Assembly (NCBI GenBank): GCA_965228875.1
Contig: OZ245843.1
Location: 2,276,616 to 2,340,615, forward strand
DNA: 64,000 bases
Direction: 5' to 3'
DNA from: Thalassobaculaceae bacterium
Lineage (GTDB): Bacteria > Pseudomonadota > Alphaproteobacteria > Thalassobaculales > Thalassobaculaceae
Below the pieces are notes generated by a model. The model made no database searches, had not been told where the DNA came from, and worked only from the letters and a program-made list of their open reading frames with translations. Positions 9,668 through 42,463 of this stretch are shown here, one piece after another. Both the position numbers and the translations under genes were made by a program. The first letter of the stretch is position 1; each line of letters starts with the position of its first letter.

Positions 9668-9672
9668 ACGGT

Positions 9673-14066: not shown

Positions 14067-14213
14067 CTCTTTTCCATCGGTGGGTGATCGTGATTACGCG
14101 CAATCTAACACGCATTCAGGACATTTCAGCCCGGCCGTCACGCATGCCTGTCGTCTCTGTCGGCAGCTGGTCTATGCTCGTTCCGTTCTACAGCTCGGGC
14201 CAGGAACGGGGAC

Positions 14214-15143
14214 ATGGCGAACGACACGGTTCTTATCACCGGCGGCAGCGGTCTTCTGGGACATTTCGTCGTCGAGGCGATGCTGCCGGACCATCGCGTC
14301 GAGGTGCTGGACGTCAGGCCCCCGACCCAGGACGTGATCTACCGCGAGGTCGACATCCGCGACATCGAGGCGGTGCGCAGCGCCGTGCGGGGCCATGACC
14401 GGATCATTCACCTGGCCGGTATCGACGATGGTGTCGACGTGCCCGACCACACCTACTTCGAGGTCAATGTCCAAGGCACCTGGAACCTTCTGCGCGCCGC
14501 CGAGGAGGAAGGCGTGCGCAAGGTGGTCGTCGCGTCTTCCGCCGCTTCCTTCGGCTTCGCCGCAGACACCCCGCCCGACCGCCTGCCGATCGACGAGACC
14601 CACCCCCAGCGGCCGCGCCGGACATACGACCTGACCAAGCAACTGATGGAACGCACGGCGGAAAGCTTCGCGCGGCGTGGACGCGGCGGTGACGGCGGCA
14701 TCGCCTCGATCGTCTGCCTGCGTCCGACCCTGGTAGCCCGGCCGGTGAAGATCCCCGAGATGCTGGCGGAGCTCGCGACCCTGTCGGTGGAGGACGGTCA
14801 TCCCGGCGTCGCGGTCGACGCGCCGCTCTACGGCGGCCTGCCGCTCCTGCGGACCTACGTCACCTCCCGCGACGCCGCCGCGGCGTTCCGCGCGGCACTC
14901 CTGGCCGACACCGCGCCCTACGCGGTCTATCTGATCGCCGCCCGCGACACCCTGGGCAGCGTCGATACGCTCGCGTTCCTCGACCGCAACGGGAGCATGC
15001 GCCCGGACGTCCGGGACACCGCGTGGTTCGCCCGAAGCGACGCCAGTCCGTTCGACACCCGCGCCGCCGAGCAGGACCTCGGCTGGGTCGCCGGCGACGA
15101 CTGGCCGTCGGTGGTCGCGGCCGCGACCGGAGCCGGCGGATGA
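14214..15143 (+). CDS. NAD-dependent epimerase/dehydratase
   Basis: ITGGSGLLG, IIHLAG, NVQGTWN and YxxxK (YDLTK). Confidence 0.88.
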   Translation: MANDTVLITGGSGLLGHFVVEAMLPDHRVEVLDVRPPTQDVIYREVDIRDIEAVRSAVRGHDRIIHLAGIDDGVDVPDHTYFEVNVQGTWNLLRAAEEEGVRKVVVASSAASFGFAADTPPDRLPIDETHPQRPRRTYDLTKQLMERTAESFARRGRGGDGGIASIVCLRPTLVARPVKIPEMLAELATLSVEDGHPGVAVDAPLYGGLPLLRTYVTSRDAAAAFRAALLADTAPYAVYLIAARDTLGSVDTLAFLDRNGSMRPDVRDTAWFARSDASPFDTRAAEQDLGWVAGDDWPSVVAAATGAGG

Positions 15144-26468: not shown

Positions 26469-27409
26469 GCCGCTCCACCGAGGGCCGATTTCGGCAGCAC
26501 CACGTGGATGCCCTTCTCCTGATTGACCAGTTGGGTGACGCGCACGTCGGCCGCGAGGCTCATCAGCATGAAGGCCTGGCTGCGCGACAGGTTGGTGGTC
26601 TCGACCGTCCAGTCGATCATCTGCCGCAGGGCGTGACTCGCCGCGTCGTCCAGGTCGGCGCTCATGCCCATGGTGATGCGGGCGTCCGGCGACTCGGCCC
26701 GGGGATAGTCCAGGTCGAGATCCTTGCGCAGATGCACCTCGATGTCGCCTTCGAGCGCTGTTTCGATGGCGGTCACGCAGACCTCTCCGTCGCCCTGAAC
26801 CCCGTGGCCGTCGCCAAGCGAAAGCTTGCCCCCCTCGGTCCAGACAGGGAGATACAGCGTGGTGCCGGCGATCAGTTCCTTATTGTCCAGATTGCCGCCG
26901 TTCTTGCGCGGCTGAATGGTCGAGATCGGCCCCCAGCCGGGCGGCGGGGCGACGCCAATGACCCCGAAGAACGGCCGCAGCGGCAGTTCGGTTCCCCAGG
27001 GCAGCCGGCCGATGTTGCGCTCCGCGTCCAGGTCCACCGTCATGCGGTCGGGCTCGTCGAAATCCTCGGGCAGCGCGCCGGCCAGCGGCCGGACCTTGGT
27101 GTAGCCCCAGTCCTGCCGGAGCCGGATGTTATGCAGCCGGATCTCCAGCACGTCGCCCGGCTCCGCCCCCTCGACCGCGATCGGCCCGGTCAGCAGATGG
27201 CCGGGCATCCGGCGTTCGGAGCGGGCATGGATGTCCAGCAGCTCGGGCGGAACGTGATAACCGTCACCGGGCAGATCCTCAGGCGCGCCGGAGACCGTGC
27301 CCACGGTCACCGTATCGCCGCTGGAGATGGTGAGCACCGGGGGCATCGCGGCGTCGAACCACCCCCAGTGGCAGGTCTCGGGGGATGCGGAAAGATGATG
27401 ATGGGCCAT
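26465..27409 (-). CDS. acetamidase/formamidase family protein
   Basis: H.LTGPIAVEGAEPGDVL, GGNLD, GDGHGVQGDGEV...AIE. Confidence 0.9.
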   Translation of the reverse strand: MAHHHLSASPETCHWGWFDAAMPPVLTISSGDTVTVGTVSGAPEDLPGDGYHVPPELLDIHARSERRMPGHLLTGPIAVEGAEPGDVLEIRLHNIRLRQDWGYTKVRPLAGALPEDFDEPDRMTVDLDAERNIGRLPWGTELPLRPFFGVIGVAPPPGWGPISTIQPRKNGGNLDNKELIAGTTLYLPVWTEGGKLSLGDGHGVQGDGEVCVTAIETALEGDIEVHLRKDLDLDYPRAESPDARITMGMSADLDDAASHALRQMIDWTVETTNLSRSQAFMLMSLAADVRVTQLVNQEKGIHVVLPKSALGGAA

Positions 27410-27569
27410 GCTGTCTCCCGTCGATCAGGGTGCAACTTTGGCCGCAATGATGCGACGCAGGACGCCTGCACCGCAATCCGCCGCGCGCGCCGGACGCCGG
27501 AAGGGCCGGTCTGTGGCGGAATTATCGGTTGTATGGCGGCTTTTTTTTCCGGCCCGAAAGAAAGGGGAT

Positions 27570-28232
27570 CTAGGCCAGCCCGCTGCCCAGCGACCACGAG
27601 GCGGGCGAGGAGGATTGTCGGGTCACTGCCGAGACCGCCGGTTCGTCGGCATCGACATCGAGGCGGGTCAGGATGGCCGGCCAGGCCGCCGCCGGGTCCC
27701 GCCGCAACCACGCCTCGTCGATCCGATGGATCCGCTCGCCGCCGAGACCGAAGCTCGCGACCCGGCGCTCGAACGCCGACAACGCCTCCGTCGCGGCATC
27801 CACGACCCGCGAGATGCCGCCGGCACCAACGGTCGCGGCGACGGAAGCCGCATCCCGGCTGAGAACCAGGAGGTGGAGTCCGGGCGGGTTGAGCAGCGGG
27901 AACATCGGCCCCCCCGGATCGTGCAGAACCACGGCGCTGGCGGCGATGGAGGCGCGCAGCGACGCAAAGTACGCCGCGAGAGCCGCTCCTCCCTGCTCGC
28001 GGGCACGGGCCACCAACCCACCCGCGGCGGGGTCGGGTTCCGCAGCACCGCCACCATGACCGCCTCTCTCACCGCCGGCATCGGCCGCATCCACCGTACG
28101 GCGGGCAACGGCGTGCAGGGCGTTGCCGAGAGACACCGGTGGAAGCGCGGCCACATCCGGGTGACGATCGAGCTCCGCCATGAAGCGGCGGGGGTCTGTA
28201 ACCGGACCGGAGAGCAGAAGAAAATTGCGCAT
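27570..28232 (-). CDS. hypothetical protein, possibly degenerate sulfotransferase-like fold
   Basis: LD.HPDV, LSRD...VAA and L.RDP...L segments loosely recall sulfotransferases; no PAPS-binding loop seen. Confidence 0.4.
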   Translation of the reverse strand: MRNFLLLSGPVTDPRRFMAELDRHPDVAALPPVSLGNALHAVARRTVDAADAGGERGGHGGGAAEPDPAAGGLVARAREQGGAALAAYFASLRASIAASAVVLHDPGGPMFPLLNPPGLHLLVLSRDAASVAATVGAGGISRVVDAATEALSAFERRVASFGLGGERIHRIDEAWLRRDPAAAWPAILTRLDVDADEPAVSAVTRQSSSPASWSLGSGLA

Positions 28233-28430
28233 CGGCGTTTCCCAGCGATTGACGGGTCGTCTGCACGCCCCCATCGACGCAACCGAGTTTTCACGGTTTC
28301 TTCGCAGACTGCAAGTCTTGGTGGAAAGAATATCGCGAATCGTTGCTGTGCCTCACGAAACGCGACTCCGGCCTTGACCCTACGGTCGTTGCGGCGATCA
28401 TGGAGAGACAGAACTGGCAAGGTCGCGAGC

Positions 28431-29333
28431 ATGTTGTCCGCCGTGCGCAAGACGGGATTGATCGGCATCACCACCCAGTGGATCGACGAGTCCGGACAGG
28501 TGGCGGATCTGGCCGCCAAGCTGGGCCGGCTCGGGGAGGATGTCAGCGATTTCGCGCTCCACACGATGGGCTGGATCCGGTGCACCTCCATAGGCGCGTT
28601 CGAGGAATACGCCTTCGACACCCGATCGGTTCACCTCGCATCGCTGCAGACGCTGCTGGATCGCCTGACCGTCGACGATGCGCCACGCGCGCTCGGCATG
28701 CGCCTGCGCTGTATCGAGGTGACGACGGCCTTCGGGACCACGAAGATCTCCGACGATCATCCGAGCCGGCTGGTAAGCCTGGTTCTCAAGTGCATGGAAA
28801 TCGCCGATCCGCGGTCGCCCCAGGACTCGATCCGGCGCGGCCGGATGGAGCTTTCCGCCCTGCCGTCCCTTGGCGACGAGGTGGCGAACAGGCTGATCGC
28901 GGCGTGGCGCGCCTCCGGTGGCACACTGCGCGCGCCGATCTCGGAGTTGATCGCCGACGCGGGCCTCAACCGCAGCATCAAGATCATGGTGCCGCAGGGC
29001 GAGACCTTCCGGTTCCTGCGCTACAAGGGATCGCCGAACGCGCCATGGGACAAGGCCACCTGGCGGGGATTCGAGGGGGGGACGATCGACCAGGTGGTGC
29101 CCGACCGGGGCATGATCGAATCGGTCAAGGCCTCCACCCGCAGCGCGCTGGCCACGAAGCAGCCGGTGATCGAGCGCTGCGAGGGCGTGGTTCTCGCCAG
29201 CGACGGCCTGAAGGAATTCGCCTGGTACCGCATCTCGGTGCCGGTCGACCTGCCGAAATCGCCGTTCGAGACCGCCGATCAGGGGGTGATCGCCCTGCTG
29301 GCCCCGGTACCGGGCGGGCGCAACGCGGCCTGA
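28431..29333 (+). CDS. hypothetical protein, possible C-terminal PAS-like domain
   Basis: Strong third-position GC bias in this frame; FRFLRY.G...QPV...Y.RISVPV recalls PAS_5-like domains. Confidence 0.6.
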   Translation: MLSAVRKTGLIGITTQWIDESGQVADLAAKLGRLGEDVSDFALHTMGWIRCTSIGAFEEYAFDTRSVHLASLQTLLDRLTVDDAPRALGMRLRCIEVTTAFGTTKISDDHPSRLVSLVLKCMEIADPRSPQDSIRRGRMELSALPSLGDEVANRLIAAWRASGGTLRAPISELIADAGLNRSIKIMVPQGETFRFLRYKGSPNAPWDKATWRGFEGGTIDQVVPDRGMIESVKASTRSALATKQPVIERCEGVVLASDGLKEFAWYRISVPVDLPKSPFETADQGVIALLAPVPGGRNAA

Positions 29334-29385: not shown

Positions 29386-30174
29386 TCACGCGATGTGACG
29401 TCGGCGCTCCTCCTCGCGATAGACCAGCGGCACCTCGCCTGTACTGTGGATCTGCGTCTGCCGCCCGATGTAGTCGGCATCCTTGGCGATCAGCACCCAT
29501 TCCCGCTTTTCCGGCCGCGCCGGGTGGGTCCATAGAATGGTGTCCAGGATGTGCTGGATGTCGTAGCTCTTCGACACCAGCCCGCGATCGACCATCACCT
29601 TCTCGGTGACGCTGACCATGCCGACCTTGCCCCACCGGGCGTGCGCCATCGAGCCGGCGGCGATGCCGAGGATGCGCGGGAAGTTGGTCTGGCGTCCCCG
29701 CAGGTCCGGACGCACCCACAGCCCGCCGGTCCAGAACACCTTCTCGTCGATCCGCGAGGCGTAGGCGTCGGCCTCGCCCTGAATGCTCAGGCGTTCGCCG
29801 GGCACCATCTGCTCCGCCGGATTGGCGTAGAACAGGCTGAGGGTCTCCAGCTGGTCGGCGAGCGACGTGACGGTGAAGCGGTAGAGGCGCACCCCCAGCG
29901 TCGCCGCGATGCCATCGTCATCGCGTACGGTCAGGCCGATGCAGTCGCCGGCCTTGGCCGGCTTGAAGCGGCTGTCGAAAGCGCTCGGCACGTACTTGCC
30001 GACCTCGCGCAATCGCTCCTTGAAGGTGTCGATGTCGTCGCAGGCCTTCAGATCAAGTTTGCGTTGATGGAAGTCGCGGTCGACACGGATGAGCGACTCC
30101 TGAATCTCGCTCCGTCTCGACTCGCTCTCGCCGTGGATCGGGCCGATCCCGGACAGGAAGGGTCTTTCAGTCAT
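29386..30174 (-). CDS. hypothetical protein, possible GNAT-like fold
   Basis: Host-like codon usage; GGLWVRPDLRG resembles a GNAT acyl-CoA-binding motif. Confidence 0.6.
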   Translation of the reverse strand: MTERPFLSGIGPIHGESESRRSEIQESLIRVDRDFHQRKLDLKACDDIDTFKERLREVGKYVPSAFDSRFKPAKAGDCIGLTVRDDDGIAATLGVRLYRFTVTSLADQLETLSLFYANPAEQMVPGERLSIQGEADAYASRIDEKVFWTGGLWVRPDLRGRQTNFPRILGIAAGSMAHARWGKVGMVSVTEKVMVDRGLVSKSYDIQHILDTILWTHPARPEKREWVLIAKDADYIGRQTQIHSTGEVPLVYREEERRRHIA

Positions 30175-30450
30175 CGTTGTATCCCCCACTCGGCGCGAAG
30201 TGCGCCCCGCAACCGTAGGGTGCCAGGGGGACGGACAGCGACAGTGGCGATACGACTCGCCGGGACGGGTCGAGTCCCGGTGGCGAACAGCATGGCTGGC
30301 GGATCAGCGACTCGGATCGTCTGCCATACCCGGGTGTGCGGCCGATGTGGGATAGCTCACTGCGTTCGGCTCGCGCGCCCCCTCCACCGCGACAAACCGC
30401 CCGTCCGGGCGCTAGACTGGCGGCAAAGGGAGCAACCGGAGGAGAAGCCG

Positions 30451-30840
30451 ATGGGCACCGACCAGGGAACCACTATCCGCGACACCGCCGCGGTCGACAG
30501 CTGGCACGCCCATGTCTATTTCGACGCGGAGACGACGGCGCCGGCCCGCGCCCTGTACGAGCGGATCGCCGCCGCGTTCCCGCAGGCGGAGATGGGGCGC
30601 TTCCACGAGAAGCCGGTCGGCCCGCATCCGATGTGGAGCTATCAGGTGGCGTTCGCGCCGCCCCTGCTGGCGGACATCCTGCCCTGGCTGGCGCTCAACC
30701 GGACGGGCCTCGACGTGTTCGTCCATCCCAATACCGGCGACGACCTGGCCGACCACCGCGACCACGTCCTCTTCCTCGGCCGTTCCTACCCGCTGAAGCT
30801 GTCGATCTTCACCGCCGAGGACGACTCTCGGACAACCTGA
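30451..30840 (+). CDS. DOPA 4,5-dioxygenase family protein
   Basis: WHAHVYF, PVGPHP..SYQ, VHPNTG...DH; GGAGGAG RBS. Confidence 0.88.
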   Translation: MGTDQGTTIRDTAAVDSWHAHVYFDAETTAPARALYERIAAAFPQAEMGRFHEKPVGPHPMWSYQVAFAPPLLADILPWLALNRTGLDVFVHPNTGDDLADHRDHVLFLGRSYPLKLSIFTAEDDSRTT

Positions 30841-30980
30841 CGGCGGACGGCGCCGACAACAGTCGTCGGCACACCCACGGTGCCGTCCGCGCGCCACGGG
30901 AAGCCACTGAACGCGCCCCCGAGACCGGGAAAGCGCGTTTCAGGACAACATCTTGTCCGCAGATCGGGAACTTGGAAGGG

Positions 30981-31029
30981 AAGTGGTAGCGGAGGAGGGA
31001 CTTGAACCCCCGACACGCGGATTATGATT
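30981..31029 (-). repeat. att site: 49-bp duplicate of the tRNA-Met 3' half
   Basis: AAGTGGTAGCGGAGGAGGGACTTGAACCCCCGACACGCGGATTATGATT is identical to 40371-40419. Confidence 0.95.
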
Positions 31030-31267
31030 GGATTAGATTACAATAATCCAATATGTTTCAACCATTTACTTCGTAAGAATACAAGTGCACTACAAAATGC
31101 GCTACACTACCAAGCATTTATGACGCGCGGATTACTGTCGTTAACACTGTAATCTGAAACGCTCTTGTGCCCTCTTGACGCGTAATTTGATCATCCGAAT
31201 ATACACCAATGTATGGTATCCTGTTTCCCCGCGGCAATTCCGGTGCCCCTGCGAACGGAGAGCGCTA

Positions 31268-32116
31268 ATGCACAAAGCGATGTCTGACTATATGCTCCAA
31301 CCTCAACGATCACACGTAGATATGATCTATATGGAGTCGAGAGGTATCTATGTTCGTGTTCCGCACTATTTACGTGGAAAATGGTGGTCCGTTATTCATC
31401 TCGGCCGCTGCAATTTTAATTGTGGCTATTGCAAGCCTGGGGGATTTCTGCCGAGGGCAAAGAAACAGGTATTTCCGAACTCCCGAAAAATTCCAATGAA
31501 CGATGTTTTGGCATTCGTTCGAAATGAAGCATTAGAGGGCAATTTACTCAAGATCACAGGTGGCGAGCCAACGCTTGACTATGCGGAAGTCGAAGCAATG
31601 ATAGATTGCGCGCTCGCCCACGGCGGCTATGTTTGCTTGGATTCGAACGGATGGAATCCTGACCGCCTTTATTCTTTGGGCAAAAAGTGCCATCAGATAG
31701 CTATCGATATCAAGGGAAACAGAGAAACAGTTGAAACAATAACCGGTCGACCGCCAGAAATTTCCTTTGACCGAGCCGTTGAGTCGCTGCGGGCGATTTC
31801 GAAGCTGAATGGAACCAAAACCATTGAAGTTCGAACCCCAATTTTCTCACAAACCACAATTTCTGAACTATGCGATGTCGCCGAGGTGATTCCTTCAAAC
31901 GCATACTGGATCCTTCGCAATTTTACGGACGATGCTCTTGATGGAGACACCACGGGAATTAACGCTCCGCCGTACGCGGAGTGGGCAAAACCTGCATCAG
32001 AATCCCACGTCCTCCAGCTTCACAACACTCTCTTGGAGCATTTTCCAGACCTCTCCTCACGACTCATTTCCCTTCCAGGTTCGGCTCGAACGGAGGAGAT
32101 CTATGAGATGGCATAA
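31268..32116 (+). CDS. radical SAM protein (activating-enzyme/PflA-NrdG-like core, no SPASM domain)
   Basis: CNFNCGYC (CxxxCxxC), ITGGEPTL, DSNG, IDIKG and EVRT; GGAG RBS before ATG 31268. Confidence 0.88.
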   Translation: MHKAMSDYMLQPQRSHVDMIYMESRGIYVRVPHYLRGKWWSVIHLGRCNFNCGYCKPGGFLPRAKKQVFPNSRKIPMNDVLAFVRNEALEGNLLKITGGEPTLDYAEVEAMIDCALAHGGYVCLDSNGWNPDRLYSLGKKCHQIAIDIKGNRETVETITGRPPEISFDRAVESLRAISKLNGTKTIEVRTPIFSQTTISELCDVAEVIPSNAYWILRNFTDDALDGDTTGINAPPYAEWAKPASESHVLQLHNTLLEHFPDLSSRLISLPGSARTEEIYEMA

Positions 32117-33452
32117 GCATATACGCCGTCCCTCCTATCTGTTGCTGCAAGATGCTTTGTTCCGAGGCAGCGGAGACCTCATGCCTTCCCTTATTGGTAC
32201 ACCGCACGATAACGTTTCTGCTTTCACGTCAAACGGGATGGCTCAGCTCTACAAAGATCCTGCAGAGCATAAGAAAATCAGCGAACATCTGGGCGCCATT
32301 CTATCTAATCGAGATCGTCTTGCTGAACTTGTTTTACGCTGGCAACAGACAAAAAGTGATATTGACGATAGTCGCGAGATAGAAAAATCTCTAGCGTCTC
32401 TCCACATAGCTCTTGCACACACTCGCCTCCTAGCTCCCTGGCAACTGATTTGGTCACGCGCCGCTGAGCTGCAATTTGACAGAGCATTAGCGTCGTGTGG
32501 CGGATCCACAGAACGTCTTCAAGACCTCGTAGAGCAACGCCTTGGCCGTTATGTAATGTCAACCATTGGCGAGTTCCGAATCTCTCAATCCGCCCATTTA
32601 CTTAGAGAGGGATCTAACCCCACACAAATATCCACAACCTGGAAGCAACGACTTTGGTCTCCAGGTTTCGCTAATCCCGTAAATATATTTAATCTATCCA
32701 ATAAGGCAAATAGAGAGAGAGAACTGAATCAATCTATCCTCTTTTTATCACATGATACTATTTTCGATCATTTCGACGATCCAATAATTTTATTAGGACT
32801 AATGATCCGCGCACGCGAAGAACGTCGATCATATTTAAATACAGCACTTTATCTTATCGATCAATCATTTTCAGAAATGAAATCAGACCCCTCGCTTCCG
32901 AAACCAATCTCCAACATCCTAGACTATACGTTGGATGAACTATTTTCTATAGGAACCTTTACTGAACTTCCTAGCCGCATTCAACCGTATCTTTACATTA
33001 AGACTGGTCCAACTCCATGCGTTATGTGCGGGACCCAAGCTGAAGACATACTGCAGTACGCTATCTTGGATGCATCCGAGGATGTCCCTGCCGGACAGAA
33101 AACGTTTAATACGCGGATGACGGCCTCACGAGGTAGAACGGTCGGAAATGCCGTGGTCATACAAGATACACTATTTGCGCCTCTGGATATCGAACCTGGC
33201 TCCGTACTTGTAGTGCATGATGCGGGAACCCACGCGTGGACTGCAGCAGCTTTCTCTCGCGCAAGTGGCGTGATAACAGAGCGAGGTGGTTTTACTAGTC
33301 ATGGAGCAACGATAGCCCGAGAGATGAACATTCCATGTATAGTTGGCGCTACAGGGATCGTGTCGAAAATTCAATCCGGCGAGCGAGTTCGAATGGATGC
33401 AGATGCCTGCCGTGTTGAAGTTTGGAAGGATGCTAAATGGACGCGGGTGTAA
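32103..33452 (+). CDS. PEP-utilizing enzyme mobile (phosphohistidine) domain protein with unrecognised N-terminal domain
   Basis: C-terminal ASRG..VG.A, PGSVLV, GVITERGGFTSHGATIAREMNIPCIVG; GGAGGAG RBS; overlaps the radical SAM stop. Confidence 0.88.
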   Translation: MRWHKHIRRPSYLLLQDALFRGSGDLMPSLIGTPHDNVSAFTSNGMAQLYKDPAEHKKISEHLGAILSNRDRLAELVLRWQQTKSDIDDSREIEKSLASLHIALAHTRLLAPWQLIWSRAAELQFDRALASCGGSTERLQDLVEQRLGRYVMSTIGEFRISQSAHLLREGSNPTQISTTWKQRLWSPGFANPVNIFNLSNKANRERELNQSILFLSHDTIFDHFDDPIILLGLMIRAREERRSYLNTALYLIDQSFSEMKSDPSLPKPISNILDYTLDELFSIGTFTELPSRIQPYLYIKTGPTPCVMCGTQAEDILQYAILDASEDVPAGQKTFNTRMTASRGRTVGNAVVIQDTLFAPLDIEPGSVLVVHDAGTHAWTAAAFSRASGVITERGGFTSHGATIAREMNIPCIVGATGIVSKIQSGERVRMDADACRVEVWKDAKWTRV

Positions 33453-34231
33453 AGAATTTATCAGATCTGTCCTATGATGATAGAATCTGGGTTGGCGCTA
33501 AAACTTGGAACCTTTATTTAATAGAACAACTAGTCCCCGTGCCTCTCGCCTTTGTCGTAAACCCCAGCGCCGACAACGAACAGGTAAAGGATCACTATCT
33601 TAAAATTGGCCTAGGGGCGTCCACTCCGGTTGCTGTTCGATCATCTTTTTCTCTTGAAAACTCCGCTTCTCAGAGTTTCTCCGGAATGTTCCCAACATTC
33701 CTAAATATTACACATCAAGAAGAACTTTTTTCCGCGATTGATAAAGTATCAGAAAGTTGGAAGGATGCAAAAATCGATCGTGACTTTACTACGGCTAGAA
33801 CTGCTACGTCTCCTAGTGGAAGCGTCTTAGTCCAAATGCTCATCGCATGCTCTTTCAGTATTTTTGGTACATATAAGACCGAGGATCGCCAATGGATTTT
33901 CGAAGGATGCTGGGGGCTAGGAACTCCACTGGCTGATGGGTTGATATTACCTGAACGTGCCGTCTGTCAGAAATTTGGAAAAGACTGGCATATAGTGCAT
34001 CGCTCCGCAGTATGCCAAGAGATCATCTGCGTACCTGGATTGGTCGGTACCACTATAGGCCCCTGTCCAGTCTCTCTGTCAGGTCGATCTTGTCTCGACA
34101 TGAGCGCCATCGAAACAATTCTAGCGCAAATCGACATAATAGAAGCCAACGTCGGCAATCTTTCTGATATTGAGCTCGGGAATTCCTCTGGAAAAATGTA
34201 CGTGTTTCAAGCTCGCTTCATTGATCAATGA
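33437..34231 (+). CDS. stand-alone PEP-synthase/PPDK N-terminal ATP-grasp domain protein
   Basis: GAK..NL, VP.AFV, VAVRSS...E.....SFSG, VLVQ, WGLG...G and DIE......Y.FQAR motifs. Confidence 0.85.
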   Translation: MDAGVKNLSDLSYDDRIWVGAKTWNLYLIEQLVPVPLAFVVNPSADNEQVKDHYLKIGLGASTPVAVRSSFSLENSASQSFSGMFPTFLNITHQEELFSAIDKVSESWKDAKIDRDFTTARTATSPSGSVLVQMLIACSFSIFGTYKTEDRQWIFEGCWGLGTPLADGLILPERAVCQKFGKDWHIVHRSAVCQEIICVPGLVGTTIGPCPVSLSGRSCLDMSAIETILAQIDIIEANVGNLSDIELGNSSGKMYVFQARFIDQ

Positions 34232-34965
34232 TGCGTATTTTCCAGCGTACCATCTATGAGGTCCGCCGAAGCGTTAGCGCACTATATAGCTCTATTCCGA
34301 GCAGTGAAATAAAATATCTTTCTCAACTCGTTGATAAAGACGGAATAGTAATCGACATAGGAGCAAATGTCGGCAGATATACAAGGACTTTTGCTAACTT
34401 ATGCCCAAAAGGCCAAGTCATCGCATTTGAACCTGGGAGCTGGGCATTTCGGAGACTTTGGTTTGCCACCATCTTCTTACGCGCTCGACTGAAAGTCAGG
34501 ATCTATCAAACCGCACTAGGATCACAAAATGCGCTTATGGATCTAAAGATCCCAATCAAGGAATCTGGGGTGCCGAGGTATGGACTAGCGCATCTTGGAG
34601 CGGCATACGACGAACGTGAGCGCGAATTTGAGATTGTTCCCGTAAATCGGCTTGATGATTTCTTGATCGTGCGACAGCTCGCCCGCATTGACTTGATAAA
34701 AATGGATGTGGAGGGTTGGGAGTATCACGTATTGTGTGGTGCGCTCAACATGGTTCAACAATTTCGACCAATCGTGGTTATAGAAGTATCAGAAATTTTG
34801 TTGTCTAGCGCTGCATCGTCGAAGAGTGATCTGTTCGAGTTGTTGCGGAGCCTAGAATACCAGTCACTAGAAATACTAGATGGAACATTGAGAGTTTGCG
34901 ACAATCCTAATTCATGGGACACAGTGTGGGTTCCGAATGAACGTCTACGACACCTAGTTCTTTGA
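34228..34965 (+). CDS. FkbM-family methyltransferase
   Basis: IDIGANVG, VIAFEP, LDD and LIKMDVEGWE; ATGA overlap. Confidence 0.9.
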   Translation: MMRIFQRTIYEVRRSVSALYSSIPSSEIKYLSQLVDKDGIVIDIGANVGRYTRTFANLCPKGQVIAFEPGSWAFRRLWFATIFLRARLKVRIYQTALGSQNALMDLKIPIKESGVPRYGLAHLGAAYDEREREFEIVPVNRLDDFLIVRQLARIDLIKMDVEGWEYHVLCGALNMVQQFRPIVVIEVSEILLSSAASSKSDLFELLRSLEYQSLEILDGTLRVCDNPNSWDTVWVPNERLRHLVL

Positions 34966-34986
34966 TATTCGTTTGGGAGGAGCGGC

Positions 34987-36210
34987 ATGAGGATAGAACA
35001 TCGAAAAGGATATTTGGCAATTAATGGCCTTTGTGAATGGCTTCCAAATTTCGAAGAGTCGTGCAAGTCTGCGTTTTCTCTTGCAGAGCGAGCCGCTTTT
35101 GATCCGGACCGCCCCCTATCGCGGCGTACATCGAACAAAAATGGGTCGTTAAGCGAAAATGCAAGGAACGATTTCCGTAAGAGCGCTCACAAGTTTCATT
35201 GGCGCGAATGCCTTGAAACGCGAATGCGCATTCTGGAAACTCAGCATCAAGAATTAACAGAAGACAATATTAGCGGGCTCAAAGAATGTTTAATTAGGAA
35301 TCCCGCTGCGCATCGATCATACGATTTTGGCTGGAGTGACAAAGGTACATTAGAACGCGATAATTCGGGAATTGGTGAATTTGTTCATGCGGTGGATAAC
35401 CCAATTTCTTCAGCAGTAGATGAATACCTATGCCGTAGTTCGAAAAATAGATTTGACGCGTTGCGAAGACCTGGATCTCTGAAAGTAATTGGTCACGTCT
35501 ACAATGTGGGAGGAGGTGATGCGCCGGATTTAGCCGATATCGGTCATATCGATATGTCCATATATACAATTGTTTATAGCACCCAAGGCGCTTGTTTAGA
35601 GTTCTTTGAGGGGGGGCAGTGGCTATCTGTTGGTCAATGTGATTGCGTGGTGATTTTTGGGTGGCTCTTGGAGCGCCTTGGATATCCTGAGTTTCATGCT
35701 GGTATCCATCGAGTTCGGTCAGTTACCAAGAGGCGTGTAAGTCTGACTTCATTCCACGAGTTGAATTCCAGCGTCAAAAGCTTGGTACTAGGGGGGCGGG
35801 AGTTTGCTCGTGAAGAAGTAAATGTAATTAAACGGTATGCTGGTTGGAGAACCAGAGGCTGCTACGGAGAATCATTGACACATTTCGCGGCGCGAACTGC
35901 CGATGTGGAAATGATGCGGCACTTGCTACGTTCACCTGTGCTATCAGGCACTGAGAGGTGTGCGCTTGGCCGCACTCCGATGCATCTGGCCGTGCTTCGC
36001 GGTGCGTTCGATGTCGTTAACGATTTACTGATGCATGGTGTTTGTTCTGATTTATGTGATGCGTATGGTGTTACACCGCTCCATCTTGCGTACTTTACGA
36101 ACAACGCTGCCGCCGTGGATGTGTTGCTTAAAAGTGGAGCTTCTCCGGATCTATTGACCAAATGGGGAAGTTCCCCGAAAAAGTGGAGCGGTCTGCACTC
36201 ATCCGCTTAG
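34987..36210 (+). CDS. 2OG-Fe(II) oxygenase (IPNS-like) fused to C-terminal ankyrin repeats
   Basis: HID...HRV...RVS (HxD/H/RxS); ankyrin repeats GESLTHFAA, GRTPMHLA and GVTPLHLA; GGGAGG RBS. Confidence 0.8.
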   Translation: MRIEHRKGYLAINGLCEWLPNFEESCKSAFSLAERAAFDPDRPLSRRTSNKNGSLSENARNDFRKSAHKFHWRECLETRMRILETQHQELTEDNISGLKECLIRNPAAHRSYDFGWSDKGTLERDNSGIGEFVHAVDNPISSAVDEYLCRSSKNRFDALRRPGSLKVIGHVYNVGGGDAPDLADIGHIDMSIYTIVYSTQGACLEFFEGGQWLSVGQCDCVVIFGWLLERLGYPEFHAGIHRVRSVTKRRVSLTSFHELNSSVKSLVLGGREFAREEVNVIKRYAGWRTRGCYGESLTHFAARTADVEMMRHLLRSPVLSGTERCALGRTPMHLAVLRGAFDVVNDLLMHGVCSDLCDAYGVTPLHLAYFTNNAAAVDVLLKSGASPDLLTKWGSSPKKWSGLHSSA

Positions 36211-36214
36211 GAGA

Positions 36215-37113
36215 TGGAGTGCTCCCGGACGTGCCCTAGGCTGGGGCTCGAGTTTCCGGACCGTGTCATCATCACGGGCTGGCAACGTGTGCTGATTTCA
36301 TGAGCGCTTCCGGGGCCTTGTTCCCGATTGCGCTGTGTGGCCGCTGTTCGTTGTAGTCTCTACGCCAAGCATCCAACTTTTCCGCTGCATCGGCAAGGCT
36401 CGGGAACCAGTGGGTGTTCAGGCATTCCGCCCAGAGTCGACCGTTGAACGCCTTGATGAACGCGTTGTCGGTGGTCTTTCGAGGACGCGAGAAGTCGAGC
36501 GTGACGTCTTTCTGGTAAGCCCACAGGTCCATGTCCCGGGAGATGAACTCCGAGCCCTGGTTGACCCGGGGCGTCTTCGGATAGCCGATTTGTCGGCGGA
36601 CACGTTCCAAAGTCGCCACCACGTTCTCGCCCCGGTAGCTGAACCTCAGATCAAGCAACGGGACATAGCGTGAGTAAGTATCGACCACCATCAGCACACG
36701 GACCTTACGGCCCGTCGCCAAATGGTCGTGCACGAAGTCCCCTTTCTGCGATTGCAAGCAATCGCCTGCCGGGCAGCGATCGCCCACACGTCCCTTGGCC
36801 CGATGGCTTCAGCGCGATCGTCACGCAACTTGGCCTTCACCCGCCGCTTCGGCGACTTGTTGCGCAGCTGCATGACCAACTCCCTGAAAACTCGGTAGAT
36901 CTTCTTCATGTTGATCGCCCAGCCCTCCCGCGTGAAAAGGACATGGACCCGTCGGTAGCCGAAGCGCACGCGGGTCTTACAGATCTCCTTGATCCGCTGT
37001 TCCAAAGCGGCCTGGTCGGGTCGACGCGAGGTGTATCGGTAGGTCTTGGGATTCAGCAGGATCGCCGCACAGGCGCGGCGGATCGGGACCGTCCATTCCG
37101 ATCGCATCGCATC
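36215..37113 (-). pseudogene. truncated, frameshifted IS3-family element (orfB only)
   Basis: Close paralog of the orfB at 37224-38021; terminal IR begins TGGAGTGCTCCC at 36215; 38-bp insertion at 36741-36778; cut at 37113. Confidence 0.88.
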
Positions 37114-37165
37114 TGACCTGAGCCCCGCAAACTCCTCCAGATTTGAGTAGAGTCCGTCACCAGAT

Positions 37166-38402
37166 TGAAGTGCTCCCGAACCTGCCCCCAGCCGTGGCTA
37201 GAGTTTTCGGGCCTCGGTCAGCATCACGGGCTGGTTACGTGTGCTGATTTCATGAGCGCTGCCGGGACCTTGTTCCCGATTGCGCTGTGCGGTCGCTGTT
37301 CGTTGTAGTCTCTACGCCAAGCCTCCAACTTTTCCGCCGCATCGGCAAGGCTCAGGAACCAGTGGGCGTTCAGACATTCCGCCCGCAGACGGCCGTTGAA
37401 CGCCTCGATGAAGGCGTTGTCGGTGGGCTTTCCAGGGCGTGAGAAGTCGAGTGTGACGCCCCGCCGGTAGGCCCACAGGTCCATGTCGCGGGAGATGAAC
37501 TCTGAGCCCTGGTCCACCCGGATCGTCTTCGGATAGCCGATCTGACCGCAGACCCGTTCCAGTGTTGCGACCACGTCTTCGCCCCGGTAGCTGAACCGCG
37601 GATCAAGCACCGGGACATAGCGCGAGTAGGTATCGACGATCGTCAGCACGCGGATCTTGCGGCCCGTTGCCAGCTGATCGTGCACGAAGTCCATTGCCCA
37701 GACATCGTTGGAGCCAACGGCTTCGGTACGGTCGTCACGCAGCTTGGCCTTGACCCGCCGCTTCGGCGTCTTGTTGCGCAGCTGCATGCCCAACTCCCTG
37801 TAAACGCGGTAGGTCTTCTTCATGTTGATCGTCCAACCCTCCCGCGTGAGAAGGACATGGACCCGTCGGTAGCCGAAGCGCACACGGGTCTGACAGATCT
37901 CCCTGATCCGCTGTTCCAAAGCGGCCTGGTCGGGTCGACGCGAGGTGTATCGGTAGGTCTTGGGATCGAGCAGGATCGCCGCGCAGGCGCGGCGGATCGA
38001 GACCGCCCACTCCGATCGCATCGCATCGACCAGCGTTCTCTTCCGACCAGGCCTCAGAGCTTTCGTTTGATGACGTCCTGCAGCATCTCCTTGTCGAGCG
38101 ACAAGTCGGCAACGATCTTCTTCAGCCGAGCGTTCTCATGCTCAAGCTCGCGCATCCGCCGCATCTCCGACGGCATCATGCCTGCGTACTTCTTCTTCCA
38201 ATTGAAATACGTCGCCTGGCTGATCCCAGCCTGACGGCAAACTTCTGCCACTGGCGTTCCGTCCTCGCCCTGCTTGATGATGAACGCCTTCTGCGCGTCC
38301 GTGAATCTCGATGCCTTCATCGTCTCCCGCTCCTCTTCCAGCCAAGGAATCAGACCCGGAAAACTCTAACCAAATTCGAGGGCGTTTCGCGGAGGCACAT
38401 CA
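37166..38402 (-). mobile_element. IS3-family element (nested, apparently intact)
   Basis: Imperfect IRs TGAAGTGC...TAGAGTTTTC and TGATGTGC...TAGAGTTTTC; 1237 bp; orfA plus orfB. Confidence 0.9.
37224..38320 (-). CDS. IS3 transposase OrfAB (orfA 38054-38320, orfB -1 frame to 37224)
   Basis: orfA HTH MKASRFTDAQK; orfB WAMDF, DQGSEF and PGKPTDNAFIE DDE motifs; CGA_AAG shift site at 38060-38065. Confidence 0.9.
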
Positions 38403-38421
38403 CAGACAGGAGACGGATCAG

Positions 38422-39578
38422 ATGAAGCGCAGTCGGTTCAGCGAAGAGCAGATCATCGCGATTTTGCGTGAGCAGGAGGCCGGTCAGAAGACGGCGGATG
38501 TGTGCCGCCGCCACGGGATCAGCGACGCGACGTTCTATAAGTGGAAGGCGAAGTACGGGGGCTTGGAGGTGTCGGAGGCCAAGCGGCTGAAGGGGCTGGA
38601 GGACGAGAACGCGCGGCTGAAGAAGCTGCTGGCGGAGGCGATGCTGGACAACGCCATGTTGAAGGACATCGTGTCAAAAAAATGGTGACGCCCGCGGCGA
38701 GGCGGGAGGCCGTTGCTCACCTGCGTGCGGTGCACGCGGTGAGCGAGCGGCGGGCGTGTTGTGTCCTGTCGGTGGATCGGTCGTCGGTGCGCTACCGATC
38801 GTGCAGACCTGACGACGTGGAGGTCCGCGAGCGTCTGCGGGCGCTCTCGCGCGAGCGGCGTCGCTTCGGCTACCGGCGCCTGCACTTGCTGCTGGCCCGC
38901 GAGGGGATCGCGATGAACCACAAGAAGCTCAGGCGGCTGTATCGCGAGGAGAAGCTCCAGGTGCGCCGCCGGGGTGGGCGTAAGCGGGCGTTGGGAACAC
39001 GCGCGCCCTTAAATCTGCCGCAGGGACCGAACCAGCGTTGGTCCTTGGACTTCGTGTCCGACGCATTGTCGGACGGACGGCGTTTCCGGATCCTGGCGAT
39101 CGTCGACGACTTCACCCGCGAGTGCCTGGCCCTGGTGGCCGACACCTCGCTCTCGGGCCAGCGCGTGGTGCGGGAGCTCGACACCCTGATCTGGCGGCGG
39201 CGGGCCAGGCCGCAGACCATCGTCAGCGATAACGGCACCGAACTCACCAGCATGGCGGTGCTGCGCTGGAGCCAGGAGCGTGCCGTTGAATGGCACTACA
39301 TCGCGCCGGGCAAGCCGATGCAGAACGGCTTCGTGGAGAGCTTCAACGGGCGCCTGCGCGACGAGTGCCTCAACGAGACACTGTTCGCCTCGCTGGGCCA
39401 CGCCCGCGCCGTGCTCGGCGCCTGGAAGGAGGACTACAACACCGTTAGACCGCACTCGAGCCTGGGCGGCAGAACACCCTCCGAGATCGCCGACCAAGCA
39501 GGCGCGGGGCATGCCCCGCACCTGCTTGCCATCCCATCAACAAATAGCCATCAATCGATGCCCGGGCTCTACCAATAG
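38422..39578 (+). CDS. IS3 transposase OrfAB (orfA 38422-38688, orfB -1 frame to 39578)
   Basis: MKRSRFSEEQI; A7 slippery run at 38676-38682; WSLDF, DNGTE and PGKPMQNGFVESFNG. Confidence 0.92.
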
Positions 39579-39604
39579 CCGGAGGAAACTCGGGGCTCAG
39601 GTCA

Positions 39605-40149
39605 TCGCGCCCATTGTTGACGAGGACTGGCACATGGGCGCGGTTCATGTATCCCTGGGCTACAGCCTCGTCGAACACGCGATTAAGCGCCGAATTATGC
39701 GTGTTCAAGGTCGAGGCCTTCGGCTCCCGCCCCATTTTTTCCGCCCGCCACTTCGCGAACTTCTGAAGCTCCTCATAGGTGATCGAGGTGATGAATTTGT
39801 CACCGAAATAGGGGATCAGATATTTTTCGAGGACAATCTTGTAGTCACGGAAGCTCTTTTTGCCCGTCCCCGCCGCAACCTGCTTGTCCATGTTGGCGAT
39901 GGCCACCTTTGCCACATCGGCAAATCGCTTACTGATGATCGGCAGCCCGTTCTTCTCGCGCGCCTGATACTCGTAGTACAGCTCCCGCGCCCGTTTCTTG
40001 GCATCTGCCAGCTGCTTGCACTTGGTGGTAACGCGTACCCACCGTCCGCCCATCTTGAACGTCGCCTGCCAGGCCCGACTCCGGTCCCGCTTGAACAGGC
40101 GGACATCCCCATCGAGCATAGTGACGGTATTCGGAGCGAGTTTGGGCAT
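39605..40149 (-). pseudogene. tyrosine integrase, N-terminal arm/core-binding part only
   Basis: Arm-binding-like N-terminus, YLIPYFG...I.SIT and ASTLN...SAL..VF SAM-like domain; broken by the IS end at 39604; no R-H-R-Y catalytic region. Confidence 0.82.
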
Positions 40150-40373
40150 GTCTACGGCGGAATGGCGTTTCTCAATTAGGCTACGACTGGCTTGCTGGTG
40201 ATAAATCAGAAAGCCGAAAAAATGTGCCCCAACAGCGTTTTAGAACGCTGTGTCGAACACACCAAACTTACAATCTAAGCGGCTGAAATGCGACGGCAAG
40301 AGTGCGCTACAGGTGCGCTACGCCTCTGCAGGCGCCGCGCATCCATGTAACGCATTGAAAATATAAAAGAAAG

Positions 40374-40450
40374 TGGTAGCGGAGGAGGGACTTGAACCCC
40401 CGACACGCGGATTATGATTCCGCTGCTCTAACCAGCTGAGCTACTCCGCC
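40374..40450 (-). tRNA. tRNA-Met (CAT), elongator type
   Basis: GGCGGAGTAGCTCAGCTGGTTAGAGCAGCGGAATCATAATCCGCGTGTCGGGGGTTCAAGTCCCTCCTCCGCTACCA; cloverleaf with encoded CCA. Confidence 0.95.
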
Positions 40451-41694
40451 ACGGAGACCGGCGATATACGGGGGGGGCTCGCCGGTGTCAAGCGCCGTGG
40501 GGTCGGTTCGGCGCGGGTCGCATCGGTTCCCAGGATCCAGCCGCCGCCGAGGACCCGCTCGCCCGTGCCGGAGCCGGAAGCAAGACCGTAGAACACCGCC
40601 GCCTGGCCGGCGGAGATGCCGAACTGCGGATCGTCGAGCTCCAGCCAGGCGCCGTCGCCGTCTGCCCGTAGTATCCCAGGCACCGGATCCTGGGCGGAGC
40701 GCAGCTTCGCCGCCACCCGCACGCCGCCGCCCCCGGCGGCGAGTTCCCCCAGACCGAGCCAGTTGACCCGGCCGACCCGGACCCGCGACGCCCCCAGCGC
40801 CTCGCGCGGACCGACGACGACGCGGCGGCGCTCCGGCTCAAGGCGCACGACGTAGAGTGGATCGGTATCCGGGGTCCCGTCCTCGCCCTTGCGGCCGCCG
40901 ATGCCGAGCCCCCGGCGCTGGCCGACCGTGTAGTGCACGATCCCCTCGTGCCGCCCCATCACGGTGCCGTCCAGATGCACGATCTCGCCCGGATCGGCCG
41001 CATCGGGGCGGAGTTTCCTGACAATCTCGGCGTAGTTGCCGTTCGGTACGAAGCAGATGTCCTGACTGTCCGGCTTGTCCTGGACGACGAGCCCGAGCCG
41101 CCGGGCCTGGTCCCGGGTCTGCTCCTTGGTCAGGCCGCCGAGCGGGAAGCGCAGGAAAGCGAGCTGCTCGCGGGTGGTGGCGAACAGGAAATAGCTCTGA
41201 TCCTTGGCCGGATCGACGGCGCGGTGCAGCTCCGGTCCCTGCGGTCCGGCGACCCGGCGCACGTAATGTCCGGTGGCCAGCGCCTCGGCGCCGAGATCGC
41301 GGGCCGTCGCCAGGAGATCGCGGAACTTGACCGTCTGGTTGCAGCGCACGCAGGGGATCGGCGTCTCGCCCCGCAGGTAGCTGTCGGCGAAGTCGTCGAT
41401 CACGCTCTCGCGGAACCGGCTCTCGTAGTCGAGCACGTAGTGCGGGATGCCGATGCGCTCGGCGACCATGCGGGCGTCGTGGATGTCCTGGCCGGCGCAG
41501 CACGCACCCTTGCGGCCGACCGCGCCGCCATGGTCGTAGAGCTGCAGGGTGATGCCGACCACGTCGTACCCCGCCTCCGCCAGCAGCGCGGCGGTGACCG
41601 AACTGTCGACGCCGCCGGACATGGCGACGACGACGCGGCGCTCGGCGCGCGGGCCGGCCAGGCCGAGATCGAGATCGGGGACAGGATCGCTCAT
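40441..41694 (-). CDS. mnmA: tRNA 2-thiouridine(34) synthase
   Basis: [11 protein letters not shown]-loop, [37 protein letters not shown] and GQAAVFY. Confidence 0.95.
40463..40491 (-). promoter_or_regulatory. sigma70-like promoter of tRNA-Met
   Basis: TTGACA (40491-40486), 17-bp spacer, TATATC (40468-40463). Confidence 0.65.
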
Positions 41695-41758
41695 GGCCGA
41701 GACATATGACGGCGCCGGCCCGGTATCGCAAGTCCGGCGGCCCCGGGCCAGTCCGGCA

Positions 41759-42463
41759 TCAGCCGGCCGCGTCGAGCCCCATCTGCCAGAACCCGACCTC
41801 CAGTTCCGTCGCCGCGGCGAAGGTCCGAGCCAGAGAGTCGAACCGCGCCTCCCCGCCGCGGCGGGCCGCCAGGCGCTCGAGAAGCTCTCCGGAGCCGCGG
41901 GCGACGTCCATGTACTCGTCGCCGGAATACATCGCGATCCAGGCCTCGTAGGGGTTGGCGTCGCCGCGCAGAGTCGCCGGGTCGCCGGCCAGACGGGCGC
42001 CAATCACCCCATAACCGACCACACAGGGCACCAGCGCGGCGTGCAGGTCGAGCACGTCGCCGGCCAGACCGCGGTCGAGCACGAACCGGGTATAGGCGAC
42101 GCAGGCCGGATCCTCCGGCACCGCCGCCATCTCCGCCTCGTTCAGCCCCCAGCCCGCACAGTACCGCACATGCAGGCTCATCTCGGTGTCGAGGAGCGCG
42201 TTGACGGTGGCCGCGGCGGCGCGCATGTCCGCGAGATCGTCGGCCTTGTACACCGCCAGGGCGTAGGCCCGGGCGAAGTGGATCAGGAACAGGTAGTCCT
42301 GCGCCAGATAGTGGCGGAACGCGTCCGGCGCCAGCGTCCCGTCGGCCATGCCGGCGACGAACGGGTGGGTCGTGTAGCGCTCCCAGGCGTCGGGACAGGC
42401 GTCGATCAGGCGGCCAAGGAAGGATCCGGCGGGCACGATGTCCGTGCGGTCGAACTCGGTCAT
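41759..42463 (-). CDS. tenA: thiaminase II / aminopyrimidine aminohydrolase
   Basis: [26 protein letters not shown] and E..FW. Confidence 0.85.

Follow-up and report, generated by a model that had tools for sequence, protein, structure and literature searches.

A five-gene operon encoding a radical SAM enzyme, a predicted two-component dikinase, an FkbM methyltransferase and an ankyrin-linked oxygenase in a tRNA-Met island of a Thalassobaculaceae bacterium

The five-gene operon

Within contig OZ245843.1 of the Thalassobaculaceae bacterium assembly GCA_965228875.1, we analysed a stretch of 64,000 nucleotides (nt; positions 2,276,616 to 2,340,615 of the forward strand), which is called the window here and supplies all coordinates below. 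It contains five open reading frames (ORFs) on the + strand, spanning 31268-36210 and all intact, that encode a radical S-adenosylmethionine (SAM) enzyme, the two components of a predicted dikinase, a methyltransferase and an oxygenase. They are treated here as one operon and are listed with their sizes in amino acids (aa):

31268-32116, + strand: gene 1, compact radical SAM enzyme, 282 aa, PflA/QueE-like, without a SPASM domain (Pfam Radical_SAM, 52.8 bits)
32103-33452, + strand: gene 2, predicted dikinase component, 449 aa, with a helical N-terminal region (residues 1 to about 335) followed by the phosphohistidine swivel domain at the C terminus, with His400 (PEP-utilizers, 71 bits)
33437-34231, + strand: gene 3, predicted stand-alone ATP-grasp (PPDK_N) dikinase component, 264 aa (PPDK_N, 77.4 bits)
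34228-34965, + strand: gene 4, FkbM-family SAM-dependent methyltransferase, 245 aa (TIGR01444, 100.6 bits; PF05050, 72.2 bits), with an ATGA overlap with gene 3
34987-36210, + strand: gene 5, Fe(II)/2-oxoglutarate (2OG) oxygenase (residues about 1-290) followed by three to four ankyrin repeats (about 293-400) (PF03171, 29.1 bits; ankyrin families)

Genes 1 to 4 overlap in turn by 14, 16 and 4 nt, and 21 nt separate gene 4 from gene 5; a GGAGGA box lies 5 nt upstream of the ATG of gene 2 at 32103. All five Pfam family matches exceed their curated cut-offs, and the ORFs have neither internal stops nor frameshifts and retain complete catalytic motifs. A row of five ORFs of 245-449 aa, all matching a curated family, is not a pattern that arises by chance. 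In 1-kb windows the G+C content is 0.45-0.48 across 31001-36000 compared with 0.62-0.73 in the rest of the window and with 65-72% for the genome, and at third codon positions (GC3) it is 0.40-0.48 in the five genes compared with 0.73 and 0.79 in two flanking ORFs. A previous sequence-only reading had described five co-oriented, AT-rich genes with these same overlaps and gap, had assigned the same five enzyme classes, and had regarded decaying ORFs as evidence against its proposal; the coordinates and base composition agree exactly, the classes are confirmed by the family matches and motifs, and decay is not apparent in any of the reading frames.

A scan for promoters and terminators returned no more sites than did shuffled sequences, the tRNA alone passed the gathering threshold in an Rfam search over 30800-40600, and a PHROGs search gave generic matches only. 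This DNA is carried by two sequencing runs of one study, possibly the source of the assembly itself, and no RNA run is listed as carrying it.

Genes 2 and 3 as a two-component dikinase

Judged from their sequences, genes 2 and 3 possess the parts of a two-component dikinase of the rifampin phosphotransferase (RPH) type. The gene 2 product carries TERGGFTSH at residues 392-400, with the predicted catalytic His400 and, two residues before it, Thr398; the best PDB match of its swivel region is the Listeria RPH (5fbs/5hv1, E 1.1e-9). By sequence, gene 3 matches 9GOJ best in the PDB (E 2.9e-5), an entry that the HpeHI paper, the source also of the other statements on these enzymes below, identifies as HpeI, the ATP-grasp component of a two-component dikinase. 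The match of gene 3 to RPH 5hv6 has an E value of 0.0051, no single stretch being significant by itself, and the NCBIfam rph models, whose cut-off is 999, scored 47 and 29 bits. The phosphoenolpyruvate (PEP)/pyruvate barrel PF02896 is absent from both genes in searches at E up to 10. In HpeHI, CreHI and PpsAB the ATP-grasp component is described as phosphorylating a His of the swivel, which then moves the phosphate to the substrate domain; genes 2 and 3 share with them a swivel-His protein partnered by a separate ATP-grasp protein, the lack of a PEP/pyruvate barrel and a T/SxxGGxxxH motif, and the N-terminal region of the gene 2 product would take the place of the substrate domain.

The N-terminal region of the gene 2 product, from residue 1 to about 335, matched no family at E up to 10, and an AlphaFold2 (AF2) model of the protein, built on a two-row alignment, was unusable, with a predicted local distance difference test (pLDDT) score of 41.7. 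HpeH, CreH and PpsA are reported to be about 45% identical to one another, and HpeH and its homologues to have Met two residues before the His. Having Thr398 in place of that Met, and sharing residues 1-230 with a single other protein (P0032, described below), the gene 2 product would lie outside the HpeH/CreH/PpsA clade, a placement drawn from these features. It also differs from HpeH in its size, 449 aa compared with about 71 kDa, and gene 3 encodes a short ATP-grasp protein of 264 aa. RPH shares the three-part mechanism with these systems; however, it is one chain, in the order ATP-grasp, substrate domain, swivel.

Feature matches in the Atlas, which serve as leads only, linked gene 2 to the Rph_4th cluster (score 0.92, 104 shared features) and to a PEP-utilising cluster, and gene 5 to 2OG-FeII_Oxy clusters. 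Many swivel-region relatives of gene 2 hold two swivel His domains per chain and are about 800-920 aa long, with short forms of about 460-480 aa; examples of the two-swivel kind are P0072, P0171, P0155 and eight others (alignment A5), and also P0087 and P0121.

Gene 1, an activase-like radical SAM protein

The gene 1 product contains the motif C48-x3-C52-x2-C55 (CNFNCGYC at residue 48) and a GGEPT motif. Its best curated family is NrdG2 (TIGR02495), at 65.7 bits under a cut-off of 131.15. The NCBIfam model PFLA gave 23.1 bits (cut-off 231.75), QueE and MoaA also scored lower than NrdG2, QueE far below its cut-off, and the viperin models gave 32.3 bits (NF038283, cut-off 180) and 28.7 and 23.2 bits (PADLOC pVip). 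Neither a SPASM/twitch domain nor a recognition element (RRE) of the kind found with peptides made by the ribosome and modified after translation (RiPPs) was detected in searches at E up to 10.

The AF2 model of this protein, built on a 12-row alignment, has a pLDDT of 78 and a predicted template modelling (pTM) score of 0.81. Foldseek placed PflA (3c8f) first (E 1.4e-8, TM 0.66/0.75), followed by QueE. A comparison with 48,161 chains by VIA-align likewise gave PflA (3c8f_A) as the closest, with Z 19.8, a root-mean-square deviation (rmsd) of 3.0 and 223 of 245 residues aligned, and then QueE (Z 16.6), NifB (16.5) and, in fourth place, viperin (15.4); the structural matches further include SuiB and SkfB, two peptide maturases. 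Like PflA and QueE, the gene 1 product is compact and without an auxiliary cluster domain; its sequence identity to them is 14-16%, and its NCBIfam scores lie far under the cut-offs.

The host genome, which is 100% complete, contains no match to the glycyl-radical domain Gly_radical (PF01228) or to NRDD (PF13597), in searches whose controls were positive in three and six of 14 genomes, respectively. Because the genome is without a glycyl-radical domain or NrdD, the gene 1 enzyme cannot be a conventional activase in this host. By eye, no glycyl-radical motif of the RV-x-G type is apparent in the five operon translations. A complex prediction for the products of genes 1 and 2 scored 0.00 and carries no weight either way. 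Upstream of gene 1 there is a 42-aa ORF (31024-31152) whose ATG lies within the att repeat described below; we do not count it as a precursor peptide, because it has no homology or other support.

Genes 4 and 5

The gene 4 product is clearly an FkbM methyltransferase by its family scores, which far exceed the cut-offs of 37.7 bits for TIGR01444 and 22.7 bits for PF05050 (Methyltransf_21), and it has the SAM-binding glycine motif DIGANVG at residue 43. In gene 5 the match to PF03171 (2OG-FeII_Oxy) exceeds a cut-off of 23 bits, and the iron triad H187-x-D189 and H241 is accompanied by the 2OG-binding R250-x-S252. The PDB matches of the oxygenase domain, which are not significant (E 0.17-1.4), are H6H, deoxypodophyllotoxin synthase and IPNS, all of them small-molecule oxygenases. 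The ankyrin region matches the PADLOC candidate PDC-M72A with 31.7 bits, a match that covers the repeats only.

The tRNA-Met island

The operon lies in an island of 9.4 kb bounded by a 54-nt direct repeat (30976-31029 and 40366-40419, 96% identical) that corresponds to the 3' half of a tRNA-Met gene at 40374-40450 on the - strand. Apart from the five genes, the island contains the following features:

30976-31029, no strand: left island boundary, attL-like, a copy of the tRNA-Met 3' half (54-nt direct repeat, 96% identity with 40366-40419)
36215-37165, - strand: partial, frameshifted IS3-family copy (orfB remnant), sharing repeats D1, D2 and D4 with the next copy at 77-90% identity (rve/rve_3 and HTH_21 on two broken ORFs)
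37166-38330, - strand, ends approximate: IS3-family copy with orfB at 37224-38021 and orfA at 38054-38320 (rve, rve_3, HTH_21; HTH_Tnp_1, 79.5 bits)
38311-39578, + strand, ends approximate: third IS3-family element with orfA at 38311-38688 and orfB at 38541-39578 (HTH_Tnp_1, 91.4 bits; rve_3, 113.7 bits)
39445-40149, - strand: tyrosine integrase remnant, 234 aa, with N-terminal SAM-like and central domains (Phage_int_M, Phage_int_SAM_3 and Phage_int_SAM_5 only)
40374-40450, - strand: tRNA-Met (CAT), the integration target, containing the right repeat 40366-40419 (ARAGORN; Rfam tRNA, 65 bits)

The integrase remnant has no catalytic domain, and its ORF reads into an IS3 element. The segment 36215-39578 is thus a nest of three IS3-family copies in opposite orientations, one broken and two apparently whole, and the end of the nest at 36215 abuts the stop of gene 5. 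Since the remainder of the island is IS3-family sequence and an N-terminal integrase remnant, the five genes are its sole non-mobile cargo, as the sequence-only reading had proposed in calling them the cargo of a foreign island. Its statement that no scaffold synthase, transporter or regulator is present also holds for the whole of 30976-40419, where nucleotidyltransferase and P-loop kinase domains are absent as well.

The tRNA-Met site is a variable integration hotspot: in the five genomes of the same genus that have both flanks on one contig, the distance from flank to flank ranges from about 19 to 86 kb, and the relatives G001, G003 and G007 carry additional partial tRNA-Met repeats of 46-49 nt at 98-100% identity. 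Among 41 genomes searched (the host, G000, and 40 relatives), the cargo DNA matches its own genome alone. Eight other genomes show a DNA match; it is limited to the 86-nt insertion sequence (IS) end at 36215-36300, save for one match of 83 nt in G003. The 86-nt end recurs at four other places in the host genome, in seven relatives of the same genus and in one genome of another genus of the family. The 83-nt match joins the AT-rich non-coding segment 31085-31167 to G003:C42:16112-16194 at 83% identity, about 200 nt from a partial tRNA-Met repeat there, and suggests a related island backbone carrying different cargo.

To the left of the island, a 429-aa ORF (29551-30840) has a DOPA 4,5-dioxygenase family domain in its last 100 residues only (114.5 bits), its first 317 residues matching no Pfam family. 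Two long ORFs lying in the flanks of high GC, 27408-29333 (641 aa) and 41549-43579 (676 aa), match no Pfam family and may be ORFs in a wrong frame of GC-rich DNA.

Distribution of the gene set

Relatives of genes 1, 2 and 5 were sought in large collections with a word index of 5.8 billion clusters and with HMMER on 1.84 billion representatives. For gene 1, the word index gave three proteins among 552 candidates: the query itself, P0025 (53% identical across 93% of the query length) and one match of 25% identity. For gene 2 it gave 23 proteins among 8000 scored candidates, all of which, other than the query, match the swivel region only, and HMMER gave 12,780 matches at E up to 0.001, four of them at E up to 1e-30. 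The only end-to-end match to the gene 2 product is P0032 (451 aa, 27% identity), which HMMER recovered and the word index had overlooked; distant relatives of genes 3-5 may therefore exist as well. A phmmer search of gene 2 residues 1-340 against 176 proteins again found P0032 alone besides the query, and hhalign comparisons with 11 long, two-swivel proteins confined the homology to residues 235-445. Residues 1-290 of gene 5 retrieved nothing but themselves among 1203 word-index candidates.

P0025 and P0032 are each a single-member JGI/IMG cluster and each lies on a contig of 9266 nt, an equality of size that makes it probable that the two are on the same contig. The core of the set that would be conserved is the radical SAM enzyme and the swivel protein.

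Wider surveys gave little else. Two metagenome scans found no relative, and 2.9 million viral contigs yielded three distant radical SAM loci only, at no more than 34% identity. With one genome for each of 185,579 species, there were at least 599 pattern matches and at least 454 relatives of gene 1, the best among the matches listed having 29% identity and the best 80 of these relatives being retained. When the five proteins were compared by tblastn with 90 loci (L002-L091), genes 2, 3 and 5 had no match and there was one weak FkbM match; at the best distant locus, L009, the setting differs and includes an ABC transporter, a second radical SAM enzyme and a PHP domain. A radical SAM match to gene 1 at E up to 1e-15 was absent from 400 further genomes of the phylum. 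Tblastn against plasmids gave no match to the gene 5 oxygenase domain, ordinary FkbM matches of up to 34% identity for gene 4, mostly PEP synthase (PEPS)-like matches for gene 3 (one, in Phaeobacter, within a 1341-aa protein in an unrelated context), and NrdG-like and Clostridium radical SAM genes of 24-34% identity for gene 1.

We found no paper that unites these five families in a literature search whose scope excluded most subscription journals and supplementary files. By these searches, the gene combination is nearly unique in public sequence data. The sequence-only reading, which did not recognise the combination from a described pathway, is upheld on this point, the PADLOC matches to viperin and to the ankyrin candidate being below threshold. 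Its designation of the whole as an undescribed system needs division: the combination is new, but the split dikinase architecture was already known from HpeHI, CreHI and PpsAB, with HpeI the top match of gene 3. Co-occurrence of the five genes elsewhere, which it had asked for, is likewise indicated in part, by the 9266-nt contig size common to the radical SAM and swivel relatives, but not for the oxygenase, which has no detectable relative.

Comparison with known systems

Among the nearest parallels is the agrocin 84 (agn) cluster of pAgK84, in which agnD1 and agnD2 are arranged swivel-first with an overlapping junction and show 28% and 29% identity to genes 2 and 3, respectively. A tblastn search of the five proteins against bases 1-16461 of pAgK84 matched agnD1 (E 7.6e-14), agnD2 (E 2.3e-4) and, weakly, agnC7 (E 0.008), and nothing else. 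The agn cluster also has a radical SAM-like AgnC7, an Fe/2OG-type AgnC6 and a SAM methyltransferase AgnC3; however, these other agn enzymes belong to different families, so the parallel holds at the level of enzyme class only, and the island has no counterpart of AgnA, AgnB, AgnC1, the resistant leucyl-tRNA synthetase or the exporter. The roles of AgnD1/D2 are themselves proposals, as is that of PhtL as a phosphoramidate-forming enzyme. We note that agnD2 (L092, pAgK84 7448-8353) is missing from the PLSDB feature table, although it is an intact ORF of 301 codons with a 26-nt overlap with the end of agnD1.

The other nearest parallels, likewise at class level, are TalE, a kinase of phosphoramidon biosynthesis resembling PEPS and pyruvate phosphate dikinase, for which formation of a phosphoramidate is described as shown, and the glutamine kinase Cj1418, reported as shown. 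By their descriptions, these enzymes belong to the same superfamily as genes 2 and 3 and act on small-molecule substrates. In the Campylobacter O-methyl phosphoramidate pathway, a phosphoramidate is reported to be O-methylated; unlike that pathway, the island lacks a glycosyltransferase, a cytidylyltransferase and an ATP-grasp ligase.

The Cj1415-Cj1420 pathway consists of a glutamine kinase, a cytidylyltransferase, a hydrolase and a CDP-amidate kinase.

A further likeness is to the pythonamide RiPP pathway, in which an FkbM enzyme (EreM), radical SAM enzymes (EreD/EreB) and a hydroxylation are reported to act on one substrate. In contrast to pythonamide, the operon has no precursor peptide, no SPASM or B12 radical SAM enzyme and no protease, and the accessible part of the pythonamide report mentions no dikinase.

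Proposed pathway and alternative explanations

We tentatively favour, at somewhat less than even probability, the reading that the five genes are one horizontally acquired operon that tailors a small molecule by way of a phosphorylated intermediate. We base this on the dikinase parts, on the order shared with agnD1/agnD2 and on the precedents of TalE and Cj1418; HpeHI, CreHI, PpsAB, RPH, TalE and Cj1418 are all reported to phosphorylate small molecules. We also count in its favour the coupled junctions, the intact motifs, the PF03171 assignment of the oxygenase, the want of a glycyl-radical partner for gene 1 and the location of P0025 and P0032 on 9266-nt contigs. By analogy with the family mechanism, the gene 3 protein would bind ATP and its beta-phosphate would move to His400 on the swivel domain of gene 2, which would pass it to a substrate held in the helical N-terminal domain, with release of AMP and phosphate. 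From their enzyme classes, the radical SAM enzyme and the Fe/2OG oxygenase would each functionalise a C-H bond of the same substrate, and the FkbM enzyme would methylate a hydroxyl or the new phosphate or phosphoramidate group. Since there is no scaffold synthase, the substrate would be a common metabolite (a nucleotide, amino acid or sugar) or an imported compound, and what results would be a derivative that is phosphorylated, methylated and oxidised and may be an antimetabolite. The sequence-only reading had likewise proposed a phosphorylated or phosphoramidate-like small molecule; the precedents of TalE and Cj1418, together with the proposed roles of AgnD1/D2 and PhtL, lend this chemistry substance, but the pathway itself is still only predicted.

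Several observations weigh against a small-molecule pathway of this kind. Its substrate, product and expression are all predictions from sequence, and so is the substrate-binding role of the gene 2 N-terminal region, which has no family match and no usable model (pLDDT 41.7). By fold, the radical SAM protein most resembles PflA (Z 19.8, compared with 16.6 for QueE), whose target is a protein, and ankyrin repeats as a rule bind proteins. The place of the oxygenase in a conserved pathway is unproven, because it has no detectable relative; the probable co-location of P0025 and P0032 is supported by their equal 9266-nt contig size alone; and the set is found, as DNA, in none of the 40 relatives, and the radical SAM protein in none of 400 further genomes from the phylum. 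The genes are not accompanied by a transporter, resistance gene or regulator, which is unusual for an antibiotic pathway, and the five may have come together by chance or be the incomplete rest of a set that the IS3 insertion at 36215 has cut. A more specific form of this proposal is doubtful: that the radical SAM and swivel proteins are the core of an undescribed mobile pathway, in which the activase-like radical SAM enzyme acts jointly with a two-component dikinase whose substrate domain has a new fold, and which together with the FkbM enzyme and the ankyrin-oxygenase makes a methylated phospho- or phosphoramidate antimetabolite for use in conflict from an ordinary metabolite such as a nucleotide or amino acid.

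The PflA-like fold (223 residues aligned at rmsd 3.0) has a second meaning, in that PflA acts on a protein loop, and SuiB and SkfB, which are peptide maturases, are among its structural neighbours. The operon might then modify a protein or peptide: the radical SAM enzyme would act on a lost or unrecognised precursor peptide or on one of the operon's own proteins, the dikinase on Ser, Thr or an amine, the FkbM enzyme on the backbone or a side chain, and the oxygenase would dock through its ankyrin repeats, which are protein-binding modules, and hydroxylate. EreM, an FkbM enzyme, is reported to N-methylate a RiPP backbone beside a radical SAM epimerase and a hydroxylation. Such a role is nevertheless unlikely, given the lack of a SPASM/twitch or RRE domain on the radical SAM protein, of a convincing precursor gene (the 42-aa ORF at 31024-31152 is the only ORF upstream, though a precursor may have been lost to the IS3 insertion) and of a peptidase or exporter in the island; moreover, PF03171 oxygenases act mainly on small molecules, and an RV-x-G-type motif is not apparent in the five translations. 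The top match of gene 3, HpeI, points in another direction, since HpeHI, CreHI and PpsAB, the three characterised two-component dikinases in the HpeHI paper, are said there all to initiate aromatic catabolism. In an aromatic or phenolic catabolic or detoxifying cassette, the dikinase would place a phosphate on a phenolic hydroxyl as a handle for activation or protection, the oxygenase and radical SAM enzyme would oxidise or rearrange the compound, and the FkbM enzyme would cap a hydroxyl; catabolism or detoxification would agree with the lack of a scaffold synthase, and RPH is reported to inactivate an antibiotic. We consider this decidedly unlikely: whereas identity among HpeH, CreH and PpsA is about 45%, gene 2 shares only its swivel region with other proteins (P0032 excepted) and has Thr where Met is reported; its operon, with radical SAM, FkbM and oxygenase genes, is unlike an aromatic catabolic cluster; the island has no carboxylase, phosphatase, ring-cleavage enzyme, regulator or transporter; and methylation is uncommon in catabolic routes.

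An anti-phage role, which the sequence-only reading had offered as an alternative, gained no support, and PADLOC returned no system. It would require a viperin-like modified nucleotide that the kinase, methyltransferase and oxygenase convert to a chain terminator or signal. The tRNA-linked island at a site that varies between species, the weak viperin matches (32.3 bits in NCBIfam, 28.7 bits with pVip), the structural neighbourhood of viperin (Z 15.4) and the PDC-M72A match (31.7 bits) are in keeping with such a module, but the viperin score is far under the curated cut-off of 180, PflA, QueE and NifB outrank viperin structurally, genes 2-4 match no PADLOC model, the PDC-M72A match is restricted to the ankyrin repeats, and the 2.9 million viral contigs give just three distant radical SAM matches; we regard this explanation as very improbable. 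The same low probability attaches to a non-functional relic, in which foreign genes would be stranded, unexpressed, in a decaying island. The integrase is truncated and one of the three IS3 copies broken, the GC3 of 0.40-0.48, far from that of the host, implies poorly matched codon usage, and the IS3 end abutting the gene 5 stop implies that further genes may have been lost; these signs are opposed by five ORFs with neither frameshift nor internal stop, with complete catalytic motifs and coupled junctions.

Significance

The component families and the two-component dikinase architecture are known; what is new is the gene combination, the unique N-terminal region of gene 2 and an activase-like radical SAM enzyme lacking a glycyl-radical partner. 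Since the set stands nearly alone in public data, it carries little general biological weight unless the 9266-nt contig has the same genes. Automatic annotation is likely to label gene 1 'anaerobic ribonucleotide reductase activating protein' and to call genes 2 and 3 'phosphoenolpyruvate synthase', and both names are unfit.

To our knowledge, few natural phosphoramidate or methyl-phosphate metabolites are known, and potent antimetabolites of this kind include agrocin 84, phaseolotoxin and phosphoramidon. A five-gene cassette of 5 kb without a scaffold synthase would be an unusually simple path to such chemistry, and one that is easily expressed. Were the operon active, the RPH-type small-molecule dikinases would gain a new class of substrate and a new substrate-binding domain, and would be tied functionally to a PflA-like radical SAM enzyme without a glycyl-radical partner.

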